A stretch of DNA of 49,636 nucleotides from a virus: the IMG/VR virus record IMGVR_UViG_3300033987_000055; one strand, given 5' to 3'. Every line of letters starts with the position of its first letter. Within the stretch, counting starts at the first letter, position 1. The translations under genes were made by a program, and so were the position numbers. Under the pieces are notes generated by a model. That model ran no database searches and was not told the origin of the DNA. It saw only the letters and a list, made by a program, of their open reading frames with translations. This document shows positions 3,053 through 43,975 of this stretch, piece by piece.

Positions 3053-3223
3053 CTAATCGCAATAAGGAATTGTGAATCTTATTATTATCTCATCTTTAGT
3101 TGTACTTATTAGTTCAGTAGTACACTCTAACCATTCAGCCATTTCTTTTGGTACTGTCTTATATCCAGTTAGTTTTTCTATTTCTTTAATTAGGTCCTCA
3201 TATAGAGGACAGTTATTTGTGAA
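3053..3223 (-). pseudogene. 3' segment of an interrupted ORF: 56 sense codons, no usable start
   Basis: The frame opens right after an in-frame TAG (3226..3224) inside the 40-nt repeat and runs FTNNCPLYEDLIKEIEKL...RFTIPYCD to TAG at 3055..3053. The first Met is codon 28 and has no RBS. An open frame this long is unusual in DNA this AT-rich. Confidence 0.4.
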
Positions 3224-3258
3224 CTACCTCCACCTATAGAGGTGGTGGCTTCGTGGTC
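3219..3258 (-). repeat. 40-nt hairpin repeat, copy 1 (identical to 38053..38092)
   Basis: Minus-strand reading is GACCACGAAGCCACCACCTCTATAGGTGGAGGTAGTTCAC. Stem CCACC/GGTGG extends through CC/GG, followed by a 7-8 nt 3' tail. Confidence 0.9.
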
Positions 3259-3417
3259 AATACTCCAATCGGAGCAAGTTTACCCACGCTCAAAGGGCTG
3301 TTCCATCCCCAGTTTTACCATTCATATGGCTAATTTTAGTAGTTTGGTTTTCACTACTTTTTAGCAACATTCATCACCCACTTATTGAAGTGGGCGACTT
3401 CTGTCGCTGATTAGGTT
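3259..3417 (-). ncRNA. Candidate structured RNA or intervening sequence between the two halves of the split ORF
   Basis: Locally GC-enriched, non-coding. Serial hairpins are visible on the minus strand: GCGAC-agaa-GTCGC, CCCACTT-caat-AAGTGGG, AGTAGT-n9-ACTACT, CGTGG..(CTCC-gatt-GGAG)..CCACG. Confidence 0.3.
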
Positions 3418-3507
3418 AAATACAAAATCTTCTATATGGTCTTTCATTGTGCCTATGCCGCTTTGAATTACTTTTCTTTCAATAAGTTCTGGTTTACCAA
3501 ATTCCAT
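3382..3507 (-). CDS. Small ORF (41 aa as read), possibly the 5' segment of the interrupted ORF
   Basis: ATG 3507..3505 overlaps the upstream stop (TAATG) and follows an AGGAGAGG RBS. Sequence MEFGKPELIERKVIQSGIGTMKDHIEDFVF.. then runs into the structured insert and stops at 3384..3382. Confidence 0.45.
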   Translation of the reverse strand: MEFGKPELIERKVIQSGIGTMKDHIEDFVFNLISDRSRPLQ

Positions 3508-5642: not shown

Positions 5643-7229
5643 ATGAAAATAGCTATATATTCTAGAAAATCAAGGTTTTCAGAATCAGGTGAATCAGTAG
5701 AGAATCAAATTCAACTTTGCAAAGAATATATTGAAAAGCATTTTGATAATATAGAAAAGTTTTACATATATGAGGATGAAGGCTTTTCAGGTGGAAATAC
5801 AGATAGACCTCAATTTCAATTAATGCTAAAAGATGCGAAAAATAAAAAATTTGATGTACTAGTTTGTTATCGCTTAGATAGAGTGAGCAGAAATATTGCC
5901 GATTTCTCAAATCTAATAGAAGAATTACAAAGACACGATATATCTTTTATTTCTATAAAAGAACAATTTGATACTTCTACCCCTTTAGGTCGTGCTATGA
6001 TGTATATTGCTTCTGTATTTGCTCAATTAGAAAGGGAAACAATTGCAGAAAGAATAAGAGATAACATGCACCAATTAGCCAAAACAGGAAGATGGTTAGG
6101 AGGGACAACCCCTCTAGGATTTGATAGTGAACCTATTACATATATAGACCATGAAGGAAAGCAAAAAAAGATGTATAAATTATCACCTATTAAAGGAGAA
6201 CTTGAAATTGTTAAACTTATTTTTGATAAATACTTAGAATTTCAATCTTTAAGTCAATTAGAAGTATTTTGTCTGCAAAATAATATAAAAACACGCAAAG
6301 GAAAAGATTTCGGGAAAATTACTTTAAGACGTATATTAACAAATCCTGTTTATTGCAAAGCTGATATAGATGCTTATAATTACTTTTATGAAAATAAAGC
6401 TTTAATTTGTGATGATAAATCAAAATATAATGGGAAATATGGATTAATAGGATATAATAAAAACTTTAAAAAAGGTGCAATGGTTATACAGAAAGATATA
6501 TCAGAATGGATTATAGCAATTGGAAAGCATAAAGGAATTATAGATGGGAAAGGTTGGGTAGAGGTACAAAATATATTAAATAGAAGAAAAGATTTATCTC
6601 CTAGGCAAGCTACTTCTCATTATGCTTTACTAAGTGGTCTAATCAGATGTAAAAAATGTAATGGGTCTATGATAGTTAAATATGGGCCTATAAAATCAGG
6701 AACAAATAAAAGAATTGCTTATTACGTTTGCAGAATGAAAGTAAATTCAAGACAAGCTAGATGTCAAAATACAAATTTAAGAGTAGATGAGACCGATAAA
6801 TATGTTATAGATGAATTAAAAAAATTAATAGAAACTGGAGTATTAAAAGATTTAGATAAAGCTCAAAAACAATTAGAAAATAAAAACTTAATGAGAAAAA
6901 ATATAAAAGATAAAATATCAGAAAATGAAAAAGCTATAGATAACTTACTTAAGCAATTAGCTAAAACCGAAAATGAAATTATCACAAAATATATATTTGC
7001 AGAAATTGAAAAGTTAGATAAGGAAAACAAGGAATTAAAAGAAAAGCTTGAAAATTATAATATTGAAAATCAAATAGTAAATATTTCAGTTTTCAAAAAT
7101 GCTTGTATCAAGTTCTATGAAATGATTGATAATGTTCCAATAGAACAAAAAAGAAACCTTTTACAATCTATTGTAAATAAGGTTTGGTGGGATGGTGAAA
7201 ATCTAGAAATAGATTTATTTGACATTTAA
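5643..7229 (+). CDS. int: Large serine recombinase (phage integrase)
   Basis: 528 aa. Resolvase-type N-domain (IYSRKSRFS..YRLDRVSRN), recombinase domain, zinc-ribbon CKKCNGSM..YYVCR, C-terminal coiled coil. Confidence 0.9.
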   Translation: MKIAIYSRKSRFSESGESVENQIQLCKEYIEKHFDNIEKFYIYEDEGFSGGNTDRPQFQLMLKDAKNKKFDVLVCYRLDRVSRNIADFSNLIEELQRHDISFISIKEQFDTSTPLGRAMMYIASVFAQLERETIAERIRDNMHQLAKTGRWLGGTTPLGFDSEPITYIDHEGKQKKMYKLSPIKGELEIVKLIFDKYLEFQSLSQLEVFCLQNNIKTRKGKDFGKITLRRILTNPVYCKADIDAYNYFYENKALICDDKSKYNGKYGLIGYNKNFKKGAMVIQKDISEWIIAIGKHKGIIDGKGWVEVQNILNRRKDLSPRQATSHYALLSGLIRCKKCNGSMIVKYGPIKSGTNKRIAYYVCRMKVNSRQARCQNTNLRVDETDKYVIDELKKLIETGVLKDLDKAQKQLENKNLMRKNIKDKISENEKAIDNLLKQLAKTENEIITKYIFAEIEKLDKENKELKEKLENYNIENQIVNISVFKNACIKFYEMIDNVPIEQKRNLLQSIVNKVWWDGENLEIDLFDI

Positions 7230-37982: not shown

Positions 37983-38052
37983 GCCAGTTGTCTGGTAGAA
38001 CTATTCTTCATACAAGACTGTATATTTACAAGTTACTCGCATAATTTGAGGA

Positions 38053-38092
38053 GTGAACTACCTCCACCTATAGAGGTGGTGGCTTCGTGGTC
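38053..38092 (-). repeat. 40-nt hairpin repeat, copy 2 (identical to 3219..3258)
   Basis: Read directly. Located in the 202-nt spacer between ORFs 38128..38397 and 37581..37925. Confidence 0.9.
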
Positions 38093-38127
38093 GTTGAATT
38101 ATTAATATATACTCATTATCCAAATTA

Positions 38128-38397
38128 CTACCTCCCTACTACTATCCATATTGGTGGTTTCTTTTTGCCTAATCTAATTTGAAAGAAATCTGGCTTATTA
38201 AGCTCTATAAATAGTTCTGACTTATTCTTTTTAACCCATGAAGTAGAAGGAACTAGCCCTAAATCTTTTAGTATTTTAGGCAAGAATCTTTCATTAGTGT
38301 ATAATGTTTTGTCTTGCCAAGATATATCATTTTCATCTTCTCCAAACAAATGATATAACTCTACTAATGGTTTACCTATTACTATGTTTTCAATCAT
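38128..38397 (-). CDS. Hypothetical protein (89 aa)
   Basis: ORF track. Confidence 0.5.
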   Translation of the reverse strand: MIENIVIGKPLVELYHLFGEDENDISWQDKTLYTNERFLPKILKDLGLVPSTSWVKKNKSELFIELNKPDFFQIRLGKKKPPIWIVVGR

Positions 38398-38698
38398 ATA
38401 ATCACCTTTTATAATTTTATTAAAAGAACAAATTTAAAGGCATATAATACTTGTAGTGGTAAACTCCTCACCAAAATATCTAAATCTAGATATATAACCT
38501 CTACTAGTGTTAATAACATAATATTGTTCATATTTTTCCATCATTTCAAATCTCCCTTTCTAATTGAATCATGATGCATTTTTTTGCATCATAATTCATT
38601 TTTTTATTTCAACTTCGCAACTCTTAATTATTGAATTAGCCAGTTTATTTTGCATTTTTTCTTTTTGCTTATCTGTTATATATAATCGCACATATTAA

Positions 38699-39028
38699 TT
38701 AACTCCTTTCTATAACTAATATAGCAGGATTAGCAACCCCATCGCCCTCATAATTATATTGTTTATTATGCCATTTTCGCAATTCTTCACCGTATTGCCA
38801 ACATTGAGACAGTATAGAAACTACTGCACCATACATAAAACCTGTAATTCCCTCTATATCTGCTTGATGAGATGTTGATTCTGCTATGTCTTCTAATTTA
38901 TACCCTTCTGTAATCTTTTCTTCCATTAGATTAGCCCATCTTTCAGCATATCTAAATACAGCAGAGCCATAAGGGTCAGTATTATTTGCTTTCCAATCTT
39001 CATAAACTTTGATATCTTTAACTTTCAT
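38699..39028 (-). CDS. Hypothetical protein (109 aa)
   Basis: ORF track. RBS GGGAGGAA. Confidence 0.55.
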   Translation of the reverse strand: MKVKDIKVYEDWKANNTDPYGSAVFRYAERWANLMEEKITEGYKLEDIAESTSHQADIEGITGFMYGAVVSILSQCWQYGEELRKWHNKQYNYEGDGVANPAILVIERS

Positions 39029-39262: not shown

Positions 39263-39982
39263 TTAATCCTCATAACAACATTTATCAAATTCAACTTTCT
39301 CTAATAGTCCCATTCCCTGCCCGCATCTTGAACCTAGTCCTGCATTATATGCTAACCTAATCAGATCTCTATCCCCTTCTAAAGCTATTAATCCAACATA
39401 ACCTCTATAAGTATCCTTCTTATATTTGAAATATTCTGGTCTATGAGATAGAATTTTTATTTTCACGTCTCTTGCTGGTAATTTCCCATAAAGTGCATAA
39501 TATTTTTCTATAAGATTTTCTCCTAATTTTACTTCCATTTCTCTGAGTTTCAGCCACTTTCCGTCAATCCTTGTAGCATACACTGGACTAACTGCTTGGA
39601 ATATTTCTGAATTAGTCAATGCAGGCTCTTTTATGTAACTTATGCTGTGTATATTGAAACTATATCCAAATAATTGGATGCTACCTATCTTCATTAACCC
39701 TTGCACAAATTTAATTACAGTCTCCTTTACTGCTGAAGAAAATACCAACGTAGCTATCCCTTTCTTTAAATGAAACTGTGCTATTCGCTTATTTTGACTA
39801 ATGTTATAAACAAAGAAAACATATTTTTTATAGCCTACTTTCTTATAGCCTTCATGCAATTTCGTTGCATATTCTTCATCAACTTCAGCTATAGCTCTAT
39901 AGATAAAAGCTGTCATTGCTTCATTTAAAGGACTATAGAAATCTAAATCTTTGTTTACTATAAAATTCACTTGTACTCTCAT
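39263..39982 (-). CDS. cas6: Cas6-family endoribonuclease
   Basis: 239 aa. Double-ferredoxin-like layout, ..ATKLHEGYKK..FVYNIS.., C-terminal glycine-rich loop AGLGSRCGQGMGLL. Confidence 0.75.
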   Translation of the reverse strand: MRVQVNFIVNKDLDFYSPLNEAMTAFIYRAIAEVDEEYATKLHEGYKKVGYKKYVFFVYNISQNKRIAQFHLKKGIATLVFSSAVKETVIKFVQGLMKIGSIQLFGYSFNIHSISYIKEPALTNSEIFQAVSPVYATRIDGKWLKLREMEVKLGENLIEKYYALYGKLPARDVKIKILSHRPEYFKYKKDTYRGYVGLIALEGDRDLIRLAYNAGLGSRCGQGMGLLEKVEFDKCCYED

Positions 39983-41141
39983 CTACATCCCCCCCTGGCA
40001 CTAAACATAATTCTGTTTCTTTTCTCCAATAAGGAGGTAAAATAGGATGTTGTCTAGCATAAATAGGAATTTGTTTCATCATCATTTCTTCTATTTTCCC
40101 TTTGCATTCCTCTGCTGGGATTGGTCTCATAAGCTTTCCGTCTTTCCATATACTCCAGTCTTCCTCAATTTCTTCAAATTCCCATTTGCCAACTTGACCA
40201 AAGCCCTGACTTCCCTTTTTGCCTAAATAGAAGATGTAATTTTCTAGCAATCTTTTTACTTCTTCCATATCCCCTCTAACATAAAAAGTAATGGTTTTGT
40301 AACTTTGTATTACAACAGGCATGTGGTAGTTTTTATAAAATCCTGCTCCTATATCTACCCTTTCCTTGCCTTTGCCGTTGAATTTTACTATATCATCATT
40401 TTTATCATCCCAGCGTTTACTCCAACTTGTTACGCTTTCTCTATGCTCCCCAATCCCAATACTGGTACAATATACTCCATATTTTCTATCTAGAATTGGA
40501 TCTAACATTGTTCTTATTTGTTCTTCAGTTCCAACTACATTTTTACCTGAATAAAATTCTTCTCCTAATATTTCTTTTGCTTTTGCTGCTGATATAATTG
40601 AATCTAATATAATTGGCTCTATCGTTGCTATTGGAGTTCTCATATGTGCTACTACTTTGAAGTTTTTAAACATATCAATCTCCCCTAATAATAATTTTTT
40701 ACTTTCAGGAAACCTAAGATATTTTTCATCCAGATCGTTAGTCCTGGTTCTGTCTAAAGCATCACAATCTTTAAACACCTTTAATAAATATACAGCAGTG
40801 TCCTTATCTACAATATAATTTTCTACTGCCTTTATTCCATTTCTGTCACTAATACAGTGATTTTCTATTATATACTTTACATATTCGTAATTTGGCATGT
40901 TTAGATGAAGATTATGTTTCTCCAATTTTTTAATACTCTTAAATCCATGCTTAGTGTCTGTTCCATTATGTTCTCGCCCTATATCATGATATAAGGCTGC
41001 ATTATATAATATCTGTCTTTGTACTGGACCTATATCTAACAATGTAGACAGCTTTGTTACATTTGCAAGTACCCTATAAGCATGTTCTGTTCCATGAATG
41101 CCATTTGCATCTTTAAAAAGTTGACCATACTCATTAAACAT
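39933..41141 (-). CDS. csf3: HD-domain phosphohydrolase fused to a Cas5/Csf3-like RAMP
   Basis: N-terminal H..HD..H..D motifs (HGTEHAYRV, LYHDIGREH, ENH, DCDALDR). C-terminal half has VVAHMRTPIATIEPIILDSIISAA and the G-rich loop LGKKGSQGFGQVG. Confidence 0.65.
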   Translation of the reverse strand: MFNEYGQLFKDANGIHGTEHAYRVLANVTKLSTLLDIGPVQRQILYNAALYHDIGREHNGTDTKHGFKSIKKLEKHNLHLNMPNYEYVKYIIENHCISDRNGIKAVENYIVDKDTAVYLLKVFKDCDALDRTRTNDLDEKYLRFPESKKLLLGEIDMFKNFKVVAHMRTPIATIEPIILDSIISAAKAKEILGEEFYSGKNVVGTEEQIRTMLDPILDRKYGVYCTSIGIGEHRESVTSWSKRWDDKNDDIVKFNGKGKERVDIGAGFYKNYHMPVVIQSYKTITFYVRGDMEEVKRLLENYIFYLGKKGSQGFGQVGKWEFEEIEEDWSIWKDGKLMRPIPAEECKGKIEEMMMKQIPIYARQHPILPPYWRKETELCLVPGGDVDESTSEFYSKQRFRFL

Positions 41142-41898
41142 ATTGCTTCACCTCTGGGAAAGCTTCTTCCAATTTTTTGTATAATTCTGGATAATTTAAT
41201 TTTAGAAAAACTGCTGTGCCTTGATGTAATAGATCTGTAGCTGTTACATAACCTAACCTTATCCAAGTGTTCCCGTTGACACATTTTTTAAAGTATATCG
41301 GGTGAATTGGTAAATTATATTTAACAAGTGTTGCTGCTACATCTTCTAACTTGTACCATAAAATTGGGTAGCAAACCTTACAATAAGTTGGTACATTTGT
41401 TTCAAAATTCATCCCATGTGCTCTTGCTGCTTTCATTCTTCTCTTGCTTTCATATGCTCTTACACCTATAAAAGCTAAGTCTTTCTTTTCGGATTCCACA
41501 AAATTTTTAATTGCATCAAAAAAATATCCTCGCTTACCAAACTGAACTTTGCTACCTTTTCCCACTACATCAAAAGCTGATACCGGAGACCAATCTATAA
41601 TAACTTCTCTACCTAGATGCTCTGCTGTTAATTTAATTATGTCTTCTGTGTGAGGGAATGAAGCATCCGACAAGTGTGCCCACATTACAAAATCCCTTCC
41701 CATCTCTTTGGCAACTTCATTAACTAGCCCAGCCATTGCTACACTATCTTTACCACCACTAATTGCTAGGTATGGATTTTTGCATCTTTCAAACGCTTCT
41801 CTAATTGCTTGCTTCGCTCTTTCTTCTTTTTTCTTGAAGGAAGATAGCTGCATAGCTACCTTCCCCATTTTTACTAAATCAATATTTCTAAAGTTCAT
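41134..41898 (-). CDS. PAPS-reductase/CysH-like PP-loop ATPase (type IV-B-associated cysH-like)
   Basis: PP-loop YLAISGGKDSVAM. No C-terminal ECG(L/I)H redox motif is visible. Confidence 0.8.
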   Translation of the reverse strand: MNFRNIDLVKMGKVAMQLSSFKKKEERAKQAIREAFERCKNPYLAISGGKDSVAMAGLVNEVAKEMGRDFVMWAHLSDASFPHTEDIIKLTAEHLGREVIIDWSPVSAFDVVGKGSKVQFGKRGYFFDAIKNFVESEKKDLAFIGVRAYESKRRMKAARAHGMNFETNVPTYCKVCYPILWYKLEDVAATLVKYNLPIHPIYFKKCVNGNTWIRLGYVTATDLLHQGTAVFLKLNYPELYKKLEEAFPEVKQYV

Positions 41899-42734
41899 TA
41901 TTTTAAAACCCCTTCTATTTCTCTAATCCACTGTCTTATCTCTTCTTTATTTTCTTCTAGGTAGTTGTAGTAGGTTTCTTCACTTTCTAGTTCGTCATAC
42001 TGTATATCTACTTGCCCATGCCCTGCTGCTGATTTTCCTCCTATGAATGGTACCTCTTTTAATTTCTTTAGTGTAGCGTTTACCATTGCTTCTTCTACTT
42101 TATTGACGTTCTCGATTACTATAGTTCCTATTAATTCAGTTCCTGCGGATAGACATTGCATTTCATATTTCATTTGCACTGGGTCATCATTTTTCTTTTT
42201 GGCTACTTCCTCTTTGATGTTGTATTCTACAGACTTAAGGTCGTCTTTCCTTGTATAAAATACTTCTTCTAGCATGTCATAGAAGGATATATCGCTTTCT
42301 ATACCTGTATAATCTACTGTTTCCTTGCATATTGGTAGGAATATTGGAGCTTTCATTTTCCCTTGAAGTATTTGGTCCCCTATAGCTGTTCCAAGTAGAG
42401 CTAATGGCGGACACATCTTTCTAATTCTTCTTCTCTCTCCTACTTCTACATATCTAGCTCCGCCGACTAAAGCTCCACCAGTAAATAGAGTATAATATAG
42501 TTTCTCTGAAATTCCTTCTTCAGCAATACCCAATCTTTCAAGATAATCCCTCATAGCTATTCTTCTAAATTGTCCCCTGAATCCATTACCTGAATAAACT
42601 GGTATATCTATGAATTCACCGTTGTATAAGAATTTGTTTGTCCTCATAATCTGCATAGTTCCTAATCTTTCATCTCCAAAGTGGCTTAGTGGGCTTAATA
42701 ATTTCATCCTCACATCAATTTTTATATTATCCAT
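41898..42734 (-). CDS. csf2: Cas7-family RAMP (Csf2-like backbone subunit)
   Basis: IPVYSGNGFRGQFRRIAMRDYL and the C-terminal FIGGKSAAGHGQV glycine-rich loop. Confidence 0.75.
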   Translation of the reverse strand: MDNIKIDVRMKLLSPLSHFGDERLGTMQIMRTNKFLYNGEFIDIPVYSGNGFRGQFRRIAMRDYLERLGIAEEGISEKLYYTLFTGGALVGGARYVEVGERRRIRKMCPPLALLGTAIGDQILQGKMKAPIFLPICKETVDYTGIESDISFYDMLEEVFYTRKDDLKSVEYNIKEEVAKKKNDDPVQMKYEMQCLSAGTELIGTIVIENVNKVEEAMVNATLKKLKEVPFIGGKSAAGHGQVDIQYDELESEETYYNYLEENKEEIRQWIREIEGVLK

Positions 42735-43185
42735 CTATCTTAACCCCTTTCTCTGTAAATTTTACTTGTCTATTCCTTTCTTTTAATTCTCTTTCTCTCA
42801 ATTCTTGTTCTTTTAAGGATTCTTCCATTGCTTTTCTTGCATCTCTGTTTAGTCGAACTTCTAGTACTAACTGCAATGTTTCTTCTCTTATCAGCTTTAG
42901 TACTGCTTGTTTGAATTCCTCTGACTGTTGGCTAACATCTCTAAATATTCTGCTTCTTAAACTTCTGACGTCCATTTTTCTAGCTAGTTTTTCCACAAAG
43001 TTTTCATATGAGTTTGTAGTCATTGCTGCTGCTTTGATTTTGTTTCCAAATTCATCCCAAATGCCGTATGCTCTTCTTGAATCTACCTTGTCCCAGTCTA
43101 TACAGGACCAAATACCGTATATGGTAGATATGGCTACATCTCGTATGTTTTCTTCTGTGAAAGCAATTTCTATACGTCTATCCAT
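42727..43185 (-). CDS. cas11: Cas11-like small helical subunit
   Basis: 152 aa, all-helical by composition, Arg/Glu-rich. The call rests on its position between the csf1-like gene and csf2. Confidence 0.45.
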   Translation of the reverse strand: MDRRIEIAFTEENIRDVAISTIYGIWSCIDWDKVDSRRAYGIWDEFGNKIKAAAMTTNSYENFVEKLARKMDVRSLRSRIFRDVSQQSEEFKQAVLKLIREETLQLVLEVRLNRDARKAMEESLKEQELRERELKERNRQVKFTEKGVKIDG

Positions 43186-43195
43186 TTTATCCCTC

Positions 43196-43975
43196 CTAAA
43201 ATAGTTTTAATTGACCTTCTACTTGACTTTGTTCTTTTTCCTTTTGCTGTTTTTGTGCTTGCTTTTGCTTTTTCTTTTCTTCTTTCTGCTTCTTGATTCT
43301 TTCCTCAACTATTTTGTTTCTTTCCTCGCTGTTTAGTATGTATACTAGTAGATCGAATTGATGTGTACCTCTGTACTGCCTAATTACATCTTCATGTGCT
43401 TTGAATCTTTCTAACCCATATTCTTCTATTCTTGCTATAGAGTATTGCCCAGTCAATATCTCATCCTTTTGAAAATACATATACATATCCCAAATTATGT
43501 CGTATAATACTTTCATGTTTGCTCTATCAAATACGTATTCTTTATCCTCTTCTCTGATTATAAATACATTTGTGTTGTTGTTTACCTTACATCTATAAGA
43601 GTTGTGTTTTTTAAAGCTTCTCGTGATGCCAATTACAAAATCACCTGATACATACTTGTCTATGTTGAATAGATATTCTTCTAAGTCGTTTTTCTTCAGT
43701 AGATATAAGTTGTCTTTGTCTGCTATGATGTTATTTGTTCTTAGTTCCCTTATTTTTACACATGTTGCACATTCCTTGCATATATGAGTACCTTGTATGT
43801 TTGCGAATACGTCATAGTCAGTAAAGTTCCCTGATACTACTTTCTTGTATTTAACGCCTTCTCTGATTTCTTTGCCACACATCATGCATTTTGTTTCTAC
43901 ATCTTCTAGTTCTAGATCTGGAAGCTCTATGTTAGATTTCTTCAATGCACTGTATATGATTTCAGTTGCGTTCAA
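43196..43975 (-). CDS. csf1: Csf1-like (Cas8-like) large subunit with a zinc finger
   Basis: 259 aa. CMMCGKE..(n32)..HICKECATC. TTG start after GGGGGTGA. First gene of the operon. Lys/Glu-rich tail. Confidence 0.5.
   Translation of the reverse strand: MNATEIIYSALKKSNIELPDLELEDVETKCMMCGKEIREGVKYKKVVSGNFTDYDVFANIQGTHICKECATCVKIRELRTNNIIADKDNLYLLKKNDLEEYLFNIDKYVSGDFVIGITRSFKKHNSYRCKVNNNTNVFIIREEDKEYVFDRANMKVLYDIIWDMYMYFQKDEILTGQYSIARIEEYGLERFKAHEDVIRQYRGTHQFDLLVYILNSEERNKIVEERIKKQKEEKKKQKQAQKQQKEKEQSQVEGQLKLF

Follow-up and report, generated by a model that had tools for sequence, protein, structure and literature searches.

The window analyzed here is IMG/VR virus record IMGVR_UViG_3300033987_000055, 49,636 nucleotides (nt) in length, and the subject is a cas6 gene that closes a type IV-B CRISPR-Cas operon on its minus strand. 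The contig (about 49.5 kb) has identical 127-nt ends, which makes it circular or terminally redundant, encodes RecT and a large serine recombinase, and is a phage. The operon runs csf1-cas11-csf2-cysH-HD::csf3-cas6, with cas6 as its last core gene, and its genes were assigned as follows.

43196..43975, minus strand: csf1, cas8-like large subunit (PADLOC Csf1_0_IV, E 2.3e-36; TIGR03114, E 5.5e-12)
42727..43185, minus strand: cas11, type IV small subunit (PADLOC Cas11_1_IV, E 3.3e-22)
41898..42734, minus strand: csf2, a cas7 (PADLOC Csf2_0_IV, E 1.3e-64; TIGR03115, E 4.4e-15)
41134..41898, minus strand: cysH-like gene of the PAPS-reductase family, a signature accessory of type IV-B (PF01507, E 3.5e-13)
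39933..41141, minus strand: HD::csf3 (cas5) open reading frame (ORF) of 402 amino acids (PF01966, E 7e-7; PADLOC Csf3_0_IV, E 3.3e-46 over residues 157-383)
39263..39982, minus strand: cas6, a Cas6b/PfCas6-type endoribonuclease of 239 amino acids with an ATG start (TIGR01877, PF01881, PF21350, and PADLOC Cas6b)

By PADLOC, the type IV-B core set is complete (Csf1, Cas11, Csf2, and Csf3), and the cysH-like gene lies between csf2 and csf3. Neither a DinG/RecD helicase nor an adaptation module was found in the gene content of the operon. Type IV-B is also characterized by the lack of a CRISPR RNA (crRNA)-processing enzyme (Cas6/Csf5), and here an intact Cas6 is present. The system is a variant of type IV-B and not a typical member, its Cas6 being a known rare exception: Cas6-bearing IV-B loci have been described before, in "only 12 instances" (Pinilla-Redondo et al., PMC7038947).

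Cas6 and its array-less clade

Several lines of evidence identify the last gene of the operon. Its product scores above the curated cutoff of TIGR01877 (90.4 bits versus 58.65, E 2e-25) and above the Pfam cutoffs of PF01881 (61.8 versus 23) and PF21350 (35 versus 27), and among the PADLOC profiles Cas6b fits best (E 3.9e-38). An AlphaFold2 (AF2) model, built on 17 relatives, has a predicted local distance difference test (pLDDT) score of 91 and a predicted template modeling (pTM) score of 0.88. The top Foldseek matches of this model are all Cas6 structures, 5yi6 from Methanocaldococcus jannaschii and 3pkm and 3i4h from Pyrococcus furiosus, at template modeling (TM) scores of 0.75-0.83, and type IV-A Csf5-like and Cas6e structures rank far below them. 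As modeled, the protein has a tandem ferredoxin/RRM fold with a C-terminal glycine-rich loop.

Tyr28 and His43 of the phage protein correspond in the alignment to PfCas6 Tyr31 and His46, which are catalytic. Moreover, Y28, H43, K53, and glycines G215, G217, G221, G223, and G225 are invariant in the 17 relatives, which are 49-79% identical, and K52 is nearly so. A candidate Tyr/His/Lys constellation, the absence of which the earlier note on this DNA had entertained, is present together with the glycine-rich loop and is invariant in relatives, with the lysine at a shifted position. In pairs with unsaturated synonymous sites, the ratio of nonsynonymous to synonymous substitution rates (dN/dS) of cas6 is 0.08-0.13. 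This ratio of about 0.1 shows purifying selection and, with the invariant catalytic residues, argues that the gene is maintained as an enzyme. Judged from its sequence, the ORF encodes a functional-looking Cas6b-type crRNA endoribonuclease, with predicted activity. Compared with the solved Cas6b, PfCas6 (3PKM and 3I4H), and M. jannaschii Cas6 (5YI6) proteins, the phage enzyme shares the double-ferredoxin fold, the Y31/H46 positions, and the glycine-rich loop, but it is only 23-26% identical to them, its lysine is shifted, and it lacks a cognate repeat in cis.

No CRISPR-like array or mini-array was found in the whole circular phage contig, a result that covers the phage genome only. The description in the earlier note of a canonical Cas6 that closes its operon without an array is thus borne out by profile, fold, residues, and the absence of an array from the contig. 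No Rfam family matched anywhere in the contig, and the 234 nt that follow cas6 are unstructured (z = -0.19).

The same arrangement extends to relatives of this Cas6. A large protein collection contained 17 of them, and about a dozen of the corresponding loci were readable; Cas6 thus marks a clade that comprises at least 17 protein clusters and keeps its gene order. Nearly all readable related loci have the order csf1-cas11-csf2-cysH-csf3-(small helix-turn-helix [HTH] gene)-cas6, with cas6 placed in front in one of them, and the cas6 ORF is intact in every related locus examined. Neither the window nor the approximately 12 related loci contain an array, a mini-array, or a shared conserved RNA or motif near cas6. 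The array-less Cas6 is therefore a trait of a clade of type IV-B systems in phages and other mobile genetic elements of Firmicutes. More distant IV-B loci, in prophages and Clostridioides difficile elements, are without cas6. A scan of IMG/VR returned no relatives of this Cas6, and a literature search found no published description of this phage clade.

In the Firmicutes IV-B operons, the cargo slotted between cysH, csf3, and cas6 varies (L001, L004, L005, L070, and L072; L002; L079). It includes a 105- to 108-amino-acid HTH protein, an N6/N4 methyltransferase, a ParB_N protein, and a second, DndC-like PAPS-reductase gene.

Comparison with described systems places the clade more precisely. With type IV-B as exemplified by the Csf complex of Mycobacterium sp. 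JS623 (PMC7937560), it shares the four core genes, a cysH-like gene in the operon, the lack of adaptation genes and of an array, and carriage on a mobile element. Unlike that system, it encodes a Cas6, its Cas5 bears an HD domain in this lineage, and it is carried by a Firmicutes phage and not by an actinobacterial plasmid. The 12 instances of Pinilla-Redondo et al. likewise combine IV-B architecture with a Cas6 and no array; they may or may not belong to this clade, and here Cas6 defines a whole clade. Type IV-C systems, with an HD domain on a Cas10-like large subunit and sometimes a Cas6 (PMC8175902, PMC13676074), resemble this one in being type IV effectors with an HD domain and possibly Cas6, whereas this one has Csf1 as its large subunit, contains cysH, and acquired the HD domain on Cas5 through a 1-nt change in an A run. 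Finally, the Bathyarchaeia "Fuxiviridae" virus (PMC10541130) likewise encodes a cysH-containing IV-B operon in its genome, but it has a two-repeat mini-array and no reported Cas6, whereas this phage has a Cas6 and no repeat.

Candidate RNA substrates for the phage Cas6

The RNA partner of type IV-B is not known (PMC7937560, PMC8175902, PMC12669027). The loaded RNA and the role of IV-B complexes have been open since their discovery, and the one solved complex bound random RNA. A clade that ties type IV-B to a conserved, apparently active Cas6 offers a direct experimental handle on the source of that RNA.

Because no cis substrate was found in any locus of the clade, the RNA would have to be supplied in trans, and since this Cas6 is of the I-B/III type, transcripts of host I-B-like arrays are the most likely source. 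Cas6b/PfCas6-type (I-B/III) enzymes normally recognize short, weakly structured repeats. We propose that the phage Cas6 would cut CRISPR transcripts supplied in trans by such host arrays, and that the products would load onto the phage Csf complex, either arming it or draining the host of crRNAs. That Cas6 processes host CRISPR RNA in trans for the phage Csf complex has, in our estimate, roughly an even chance of being correct. A more specific version, in which the phage enzyme would cut host CRISPR transcripts and so load host immune memory on its own complex, against competing mobile elements or the host, is tentative and on balance doubtful. If it is true, the specificity of this Cas6 would disclose which RNA type IV-B systems naturally use, a long-sought answer.

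Candidate hosts provide some context for this proposal. Metagenome-assembled genomes (MAGs) of Tepidanaerobacter and Tissierellia carry the transposon described below, which makes them plausible community hosts. These MAGs have I-B-like arrays whose repeats, in the transcribed sense, end in ...ATTGAAAC, and their Cas6 belongs to the same family as the phage protein, at 26-27% identity. The window holds no copy of the host-type I-B repeat (GTTTATAGNCTACCTATAAGGNATTGAAAC), with up to 3 mismatches allowed. In the MAG of Tepidanaerobacter sp. EBM-38 (L009/L035), a spacer at about 1429-1466 of a 40-repeat I-B-like array matches window positions 3216-3253 at 38 of 38 positions, covering the right end of the transposon and 3 nt of phage flank. 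This match is a weak hint of a host or of an encounter, too weak for host assignment.

Several observations weigh against processing of host RNA for the phage complex. The matching spacer is the only one of the 94 in the arrays of the two candidate MAGs to hit the phage, and it does so on the transposon end only. The lysine alignment is inexact, in that K52/K53 follow the histidine by 9-10 residues versus 6 for K52 of PfCas6, and both lysines sit in a lower-confidence loop of the AF2 model (pLDDT 66-82). Also, when I-E crRNAs were co-expressed with the IV-B complex of Mycobacterium, it did not load them (PMC7937560), and a host with arrays already owns a Cas6, so that the need for a phage copy is unexplained.

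Scavenging or sponging of crRNAs has been proposed for type IV-B (PMC8175902, PMC7038947, PMC7937560). In a pure sponge, Cas6 and the Csf complex would capture and cut host pre-crRNA only to withhold it, as an anti-CRISPR measure with no targeting of its own. The idea, already in print for IV-B (PMC7038947, PMC8175902), fits the lack of an array and of adaptation genes and the anti-defense neighborhood of the operon, with a Tad4 anti-Thoeris gene 234 nt downstream. However, the HD nuclease-type domain on Cas5 and the retained cysH suggest action on a bound target, and the authors of PMC7038947 judged the sponge model unlikely owing to its complexity. We likewise consider it unlikely, though far from negligible.

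There is only a small chance that Cas6 is a noncatalytic structural cap or a decaying remnant with no role in RNA processing. No substrate is visible, and the more distant IV-B prophage loci manage without Cas6, as this explanation would have it; it is opposed by the low dN/dS, by the invariance of Tyr, His, Lys, and the glycine-rich loop across relatives, and by the integrity of the ORF in every locus seen.

The 40-nt repeat

The window contains two exact copies of a 40-mer, which the earlier note had offered as a solitary repeat that might supply a substrate for Cas6.

38053..38092, minus strand: copy 1, a solo right-end fragment comprising the last 40 nt only, downstream of the last small ORF and upstream of the terminator (37970-37948)
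3219..3420, minus strand: copy 2, a complete 202-nt gene-less mini IS200/IS605 element, delimited by its homology borders, which ends in the 40-nt "repeat"

Scans of MAGs and IMG/VR found the core of the 40-mer once each in 22 loci. In 21 of these, it lies precisely at the 3' terminus of a conserved element, beyond which the DNA is unrelated; the remaining locus (L009) is the CRISPR spacer described above. When copy 2 is compared with two other phage contigs, homology begins and ends at the element borders. In a Tissierellia MAG, contig ends coincide with the right end of the element at least 11 times and with its left end at least 13 times. Behind the left end in this MAG lie TTGACA-17-TATAAT, a ribosome-binding site, and an ORF whose first 36 residues match the IS200 Y1 transposase family (PF01797, 28.7 bits, above the cutoff), the interior of the full-length insertion sequence (IS) being recovered only to the first 36 codons of tnpA. 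A weak match to a TnpB zinc ribbon occurs at a contig end in another MAG only. The element junctions are TTTAAC on the left and TTCAC on the right, matching the known cleavage sites of the IS200/IS605 family.

Taken together, these results make the 40-mer the right end of an IS200/IS605-family element. In metagenomes, its depth is 9331, versus 76 for its flanks, and it occurs in 40-nt unitigs; both fit a multicopy transposon end shared by subfamilies. The element resembles PATE-like nonautonomous IS200/IS605 elements in its subterminal hairpins, TTTAA(C) left junction, ...TTCAC right end, multiple copies, and Y1 transposase in full copies, and copy 1 in the window differs in retaining only the last 40 nt.

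A CRISPR repeat or solitary repeat was accordingly rejected as the identity of the 40-mer: it was never found as a repeat in arrays, its one array match being the L009 spacer, and otherwise always forms the 3' end of the approximately 200-nt element or of an IS with a Y1 transposase. The 202-nt element was also considered as a group I or group II intron or a known noncoding RNA, and this too was rejected, as it has no Rfam match and does not follow splice-site rules.

No link between the 40-mer element and this Cas6 was seen. No homologue of the phage Cas6 clade was found in the MAGs that hold the element in multiple copies or in three IMG/VR phage records, and the element-bearing MAGs have only a distant, host-type Cas6, in two MAGs. 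The 40-mer is absent from the other Cas6 loci (L001-L006).

These results bear on a further explanation, that the substrate of Cas6 is an RNA unrelated to CRISPR, from the phage or a mobile element, such as the hairpin and 8-nt tail of the 40-mer at 38053-38092. IV-B complexes do bind non-CRISPR RNAs (PMC7937560). Copy 1 sits in the same transcription unit as cas6, upstream of the terminator, the stretch that runs from copy 1 into the terminator has strong structure (z = -4.9), and on the coding strand the 40-mer forms a 9-bp GC-rich hairpin followed by exactly 8 nt, a geometry like that of a crRNA handle. The explanation is nonetheless very improbable, given that the 40-mer reads as a transposon end that is multicopy where the phage-type Cas6 was not found and missing where it was, that some near-identical phages delete the 40-mer segment (joints 38002-38557), and that enzymes of the Cas6b/PfCas6 type normally bind weakly structured repeats.

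Other copies of the element have features of their own. In L027 (IMG/VR UViG_3300014203_001898, positions ~5870-6110), the 202-nt element interrupts a phage tRNA-Lys(UUU) gene where the anticodon loop meets the 3' strand of the anticodon stem, and ARAGORN makes no call for this split tRNA. In L018, L025, and L043-L045, an internal sigma70-type promoter (TTGACT/TTGACA-17-TAAAAT/TATAAT) lies just past the left-end hairpin. In the mini versions, it would drive transcription of the last 125 nt (3'), which are structured, and on into the neighboring DNA.

Homopolymer runs and the region downstream of cas6

The HD::csf3 and cas6 ORFs share 50 nt (39933-39982), and the coding strand across their junction reads ...CCAGGGGGGGATGTAGATGAGA... 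The coordinates of this overlap and of a run of seven Cs given in the earlier note are exact. Three features of the HD::csf3 ORF matter here.

39989..39995, minus strand: G7 run (C7 on the plus strand), read from the sequence, 6 nt before the cas6 ATG (39982-39980)
39933..39988, minus strand: frame-shifted 18-codon Cas5 tail (DVDESTSEFYSKQRFRFL) plus stop, in the G7 allele only
40680..40700, minus strand: HD/csf3 junction, with an A6 run at 40700-40695 and a retained Shine-Dalgarno sequence, GGGGAG, at 40685-40680, from comparison with L081/L082

As read with seven Gs, the junction is CCA GGG GGG GAT GTA GAT ... TAG, and the cas5 stop falls at 39935-39933. With one G fewer, it becomes CCA GGG GGG ATG TAG, followed at once by the cas6 ATG; with one more (eight), ...GGA TGT AGA TGA results, and the stop overlaps the cas6 ATG in an ATGA. 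The statement that one base more or less would bring the cas5 stop to or next to the cas6 start is thus exact. In the common G6 allele, Cas5 ends ...PGGM and its TAG abuts the cas6 ATG, and in G7, the last Met gives way to the 18-residue out-of-frame tail.

Relatives agree with the G6 layout. All five aligned Csf3 relatives end 2-3 residues past the conserved P382. At L003, the Csf3 of which is 92% identical, the junction is GAGGGGATGTAA-ATG, i.e., CCA GAG GGG ATG TAA-ATG. At all loci where csf3 directly abuts cas6, the stop lies 0-4 nt from the start and the last codons are purine rich, with runs such as GAGGGG, GGAGA, and GGAGGAGG that match the G run. In the window, this run encodes the Gly-Gly codons that end csf3 and is a Shine-Dalgarno-like purine run for cas6; since a purine-rich run is conserved in the last csf3 codons of relatives, it thus doubles as the cas6 Shine-Dalgarno element.

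The base at 39989 is missing (C6) in X5, X6, and X8, three compost metagenomes from three other studies that are >99% identical locally. C7 is present in the likely source sample (X1), in an independent assembly at a depth of 75.9 on a gap-free 7.9-kb contig. The 385-amino-acid Csf3 product (...PGGM or ...PEGM) is represented by at least 6 distinct sequences from JGI, ENA, NCBI, and Logan, and the 402-amino-acid product is represented by one sequence on 3 contigs (JGI and Logan), which has N110 where the window has I110. At the corresponding position, 40813, all four metagenome runs, including the likely source sample (75.9x), read T and the window reads A (Asn versus Ile at HD residue 110), which makes the window at this position either a distinct haplotype or a base error.

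From this comparison of alleles, G6 is the ancestral and common state, and G7 a derived one-base insertion that is reproducible and found on two haplotypes. The extra base that the earlier note had invoked does create the overlap, as shown by the stop 0-4 nt from the start in all relatives and in the three near-identical phages. Because a second assembly (about 76x) and two haplotypes carry it, C7 is probably real, and we consider it very probable that it is a genuine strain allele. One point weighs against this: homopolymer lengths were judged from contigs, which drop minority variants. G7 would then have arisen by strand slippage and, apart from weakening the translational coupling of cas6, would change little, its expected consequences being a harmless Cas5 tail and the loss of the stop-start coupling for cas6. 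The 50-nt overlap and 18-residue tail would accordingly mark a strain-specific one-base insertion and not a fixed design feature, and this part of the analysis is mainly a matter of annotation hygiene.

An indel artifact, which the earlier note had suggested, is less likely. If C7 were a sequencing or assembly error and C6 the true sequence, the C6 of all near-identical phages elsewhere and the family-wide placement of the stop next to the ATG would be accounted for, and homopolymers are error-prone on some platforms. However, the independent assembler also arrived at C7, on the deep and gap-free contig from the source sample, and the 402-amino-acid tail occurs on the haplotype that differs at 40813 as well. 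We therefore regard an error as rather improbable.

It is even less probable that the G run is a contingency (phase-variable) or frameshift site that tunes Cas6 or Cas5 output. G6 and G7 are both found in nature, a second homopolymer (A6/A7) switches the HD/csf3 junction between a fusion and two genes, and X8 contigs break at 39989, with the deletion on only 8.28 of a depth of 19.5. Nevertheless, 6-7 nt is short for efficient slippage, the contigs of each sample show essentially one state with no sign of switching within a population, and the protein consequence is mild. A regulatory role for G7 is possible and unsupported.

The second homopolymer concerns the HD domain, which spans residues 1-156 of the 402-amino-acid ORF; by alignment with unfused Csf3, Csf3 begins at M157 (ATG 40673-40671). 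In L081 (3060-3125) and L082, the run is A7 and HD is a separate 155-amino-acid gene with its TGA 1 nt before the csf3 ATG. The HD proteins of these loci are identical to that of the window up to the frameshift, and L003 has no HD domain. The fused form occurs in many independent assemblies, and X5, X6, and X8 cover the fusion without gaps. The HD::Cas5 fusion is real but recent, resting on a single homopolymer base, and is thus not a fixed design feature either. Since the Shine-Dalgarno sequence before Met157 is retained, unfused Csf3 may also be made in the window.

The Tad4 anti-Thoeris family protein (PF25186, E 4e-41) is encoded at 38699-39028 on the minus strand, and its gene alone in this region resembles GenBank phages at the DNA level (Bacillus Bastille-like phages, 71-75%). 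Between it and the next small ORFs, at 38564-38603, are two tandem 20-nt units with the palindrome TGATGCA-N7-TGCATCA, which are operator-like. Further downstream, some contigs of the X8 assembly join 38002, 38005, or 38009 to 38557, which deletes the solo 40-mer and an 89-amino-acid ORF; the segment 38002-38557 is accessory among near-identical phages.

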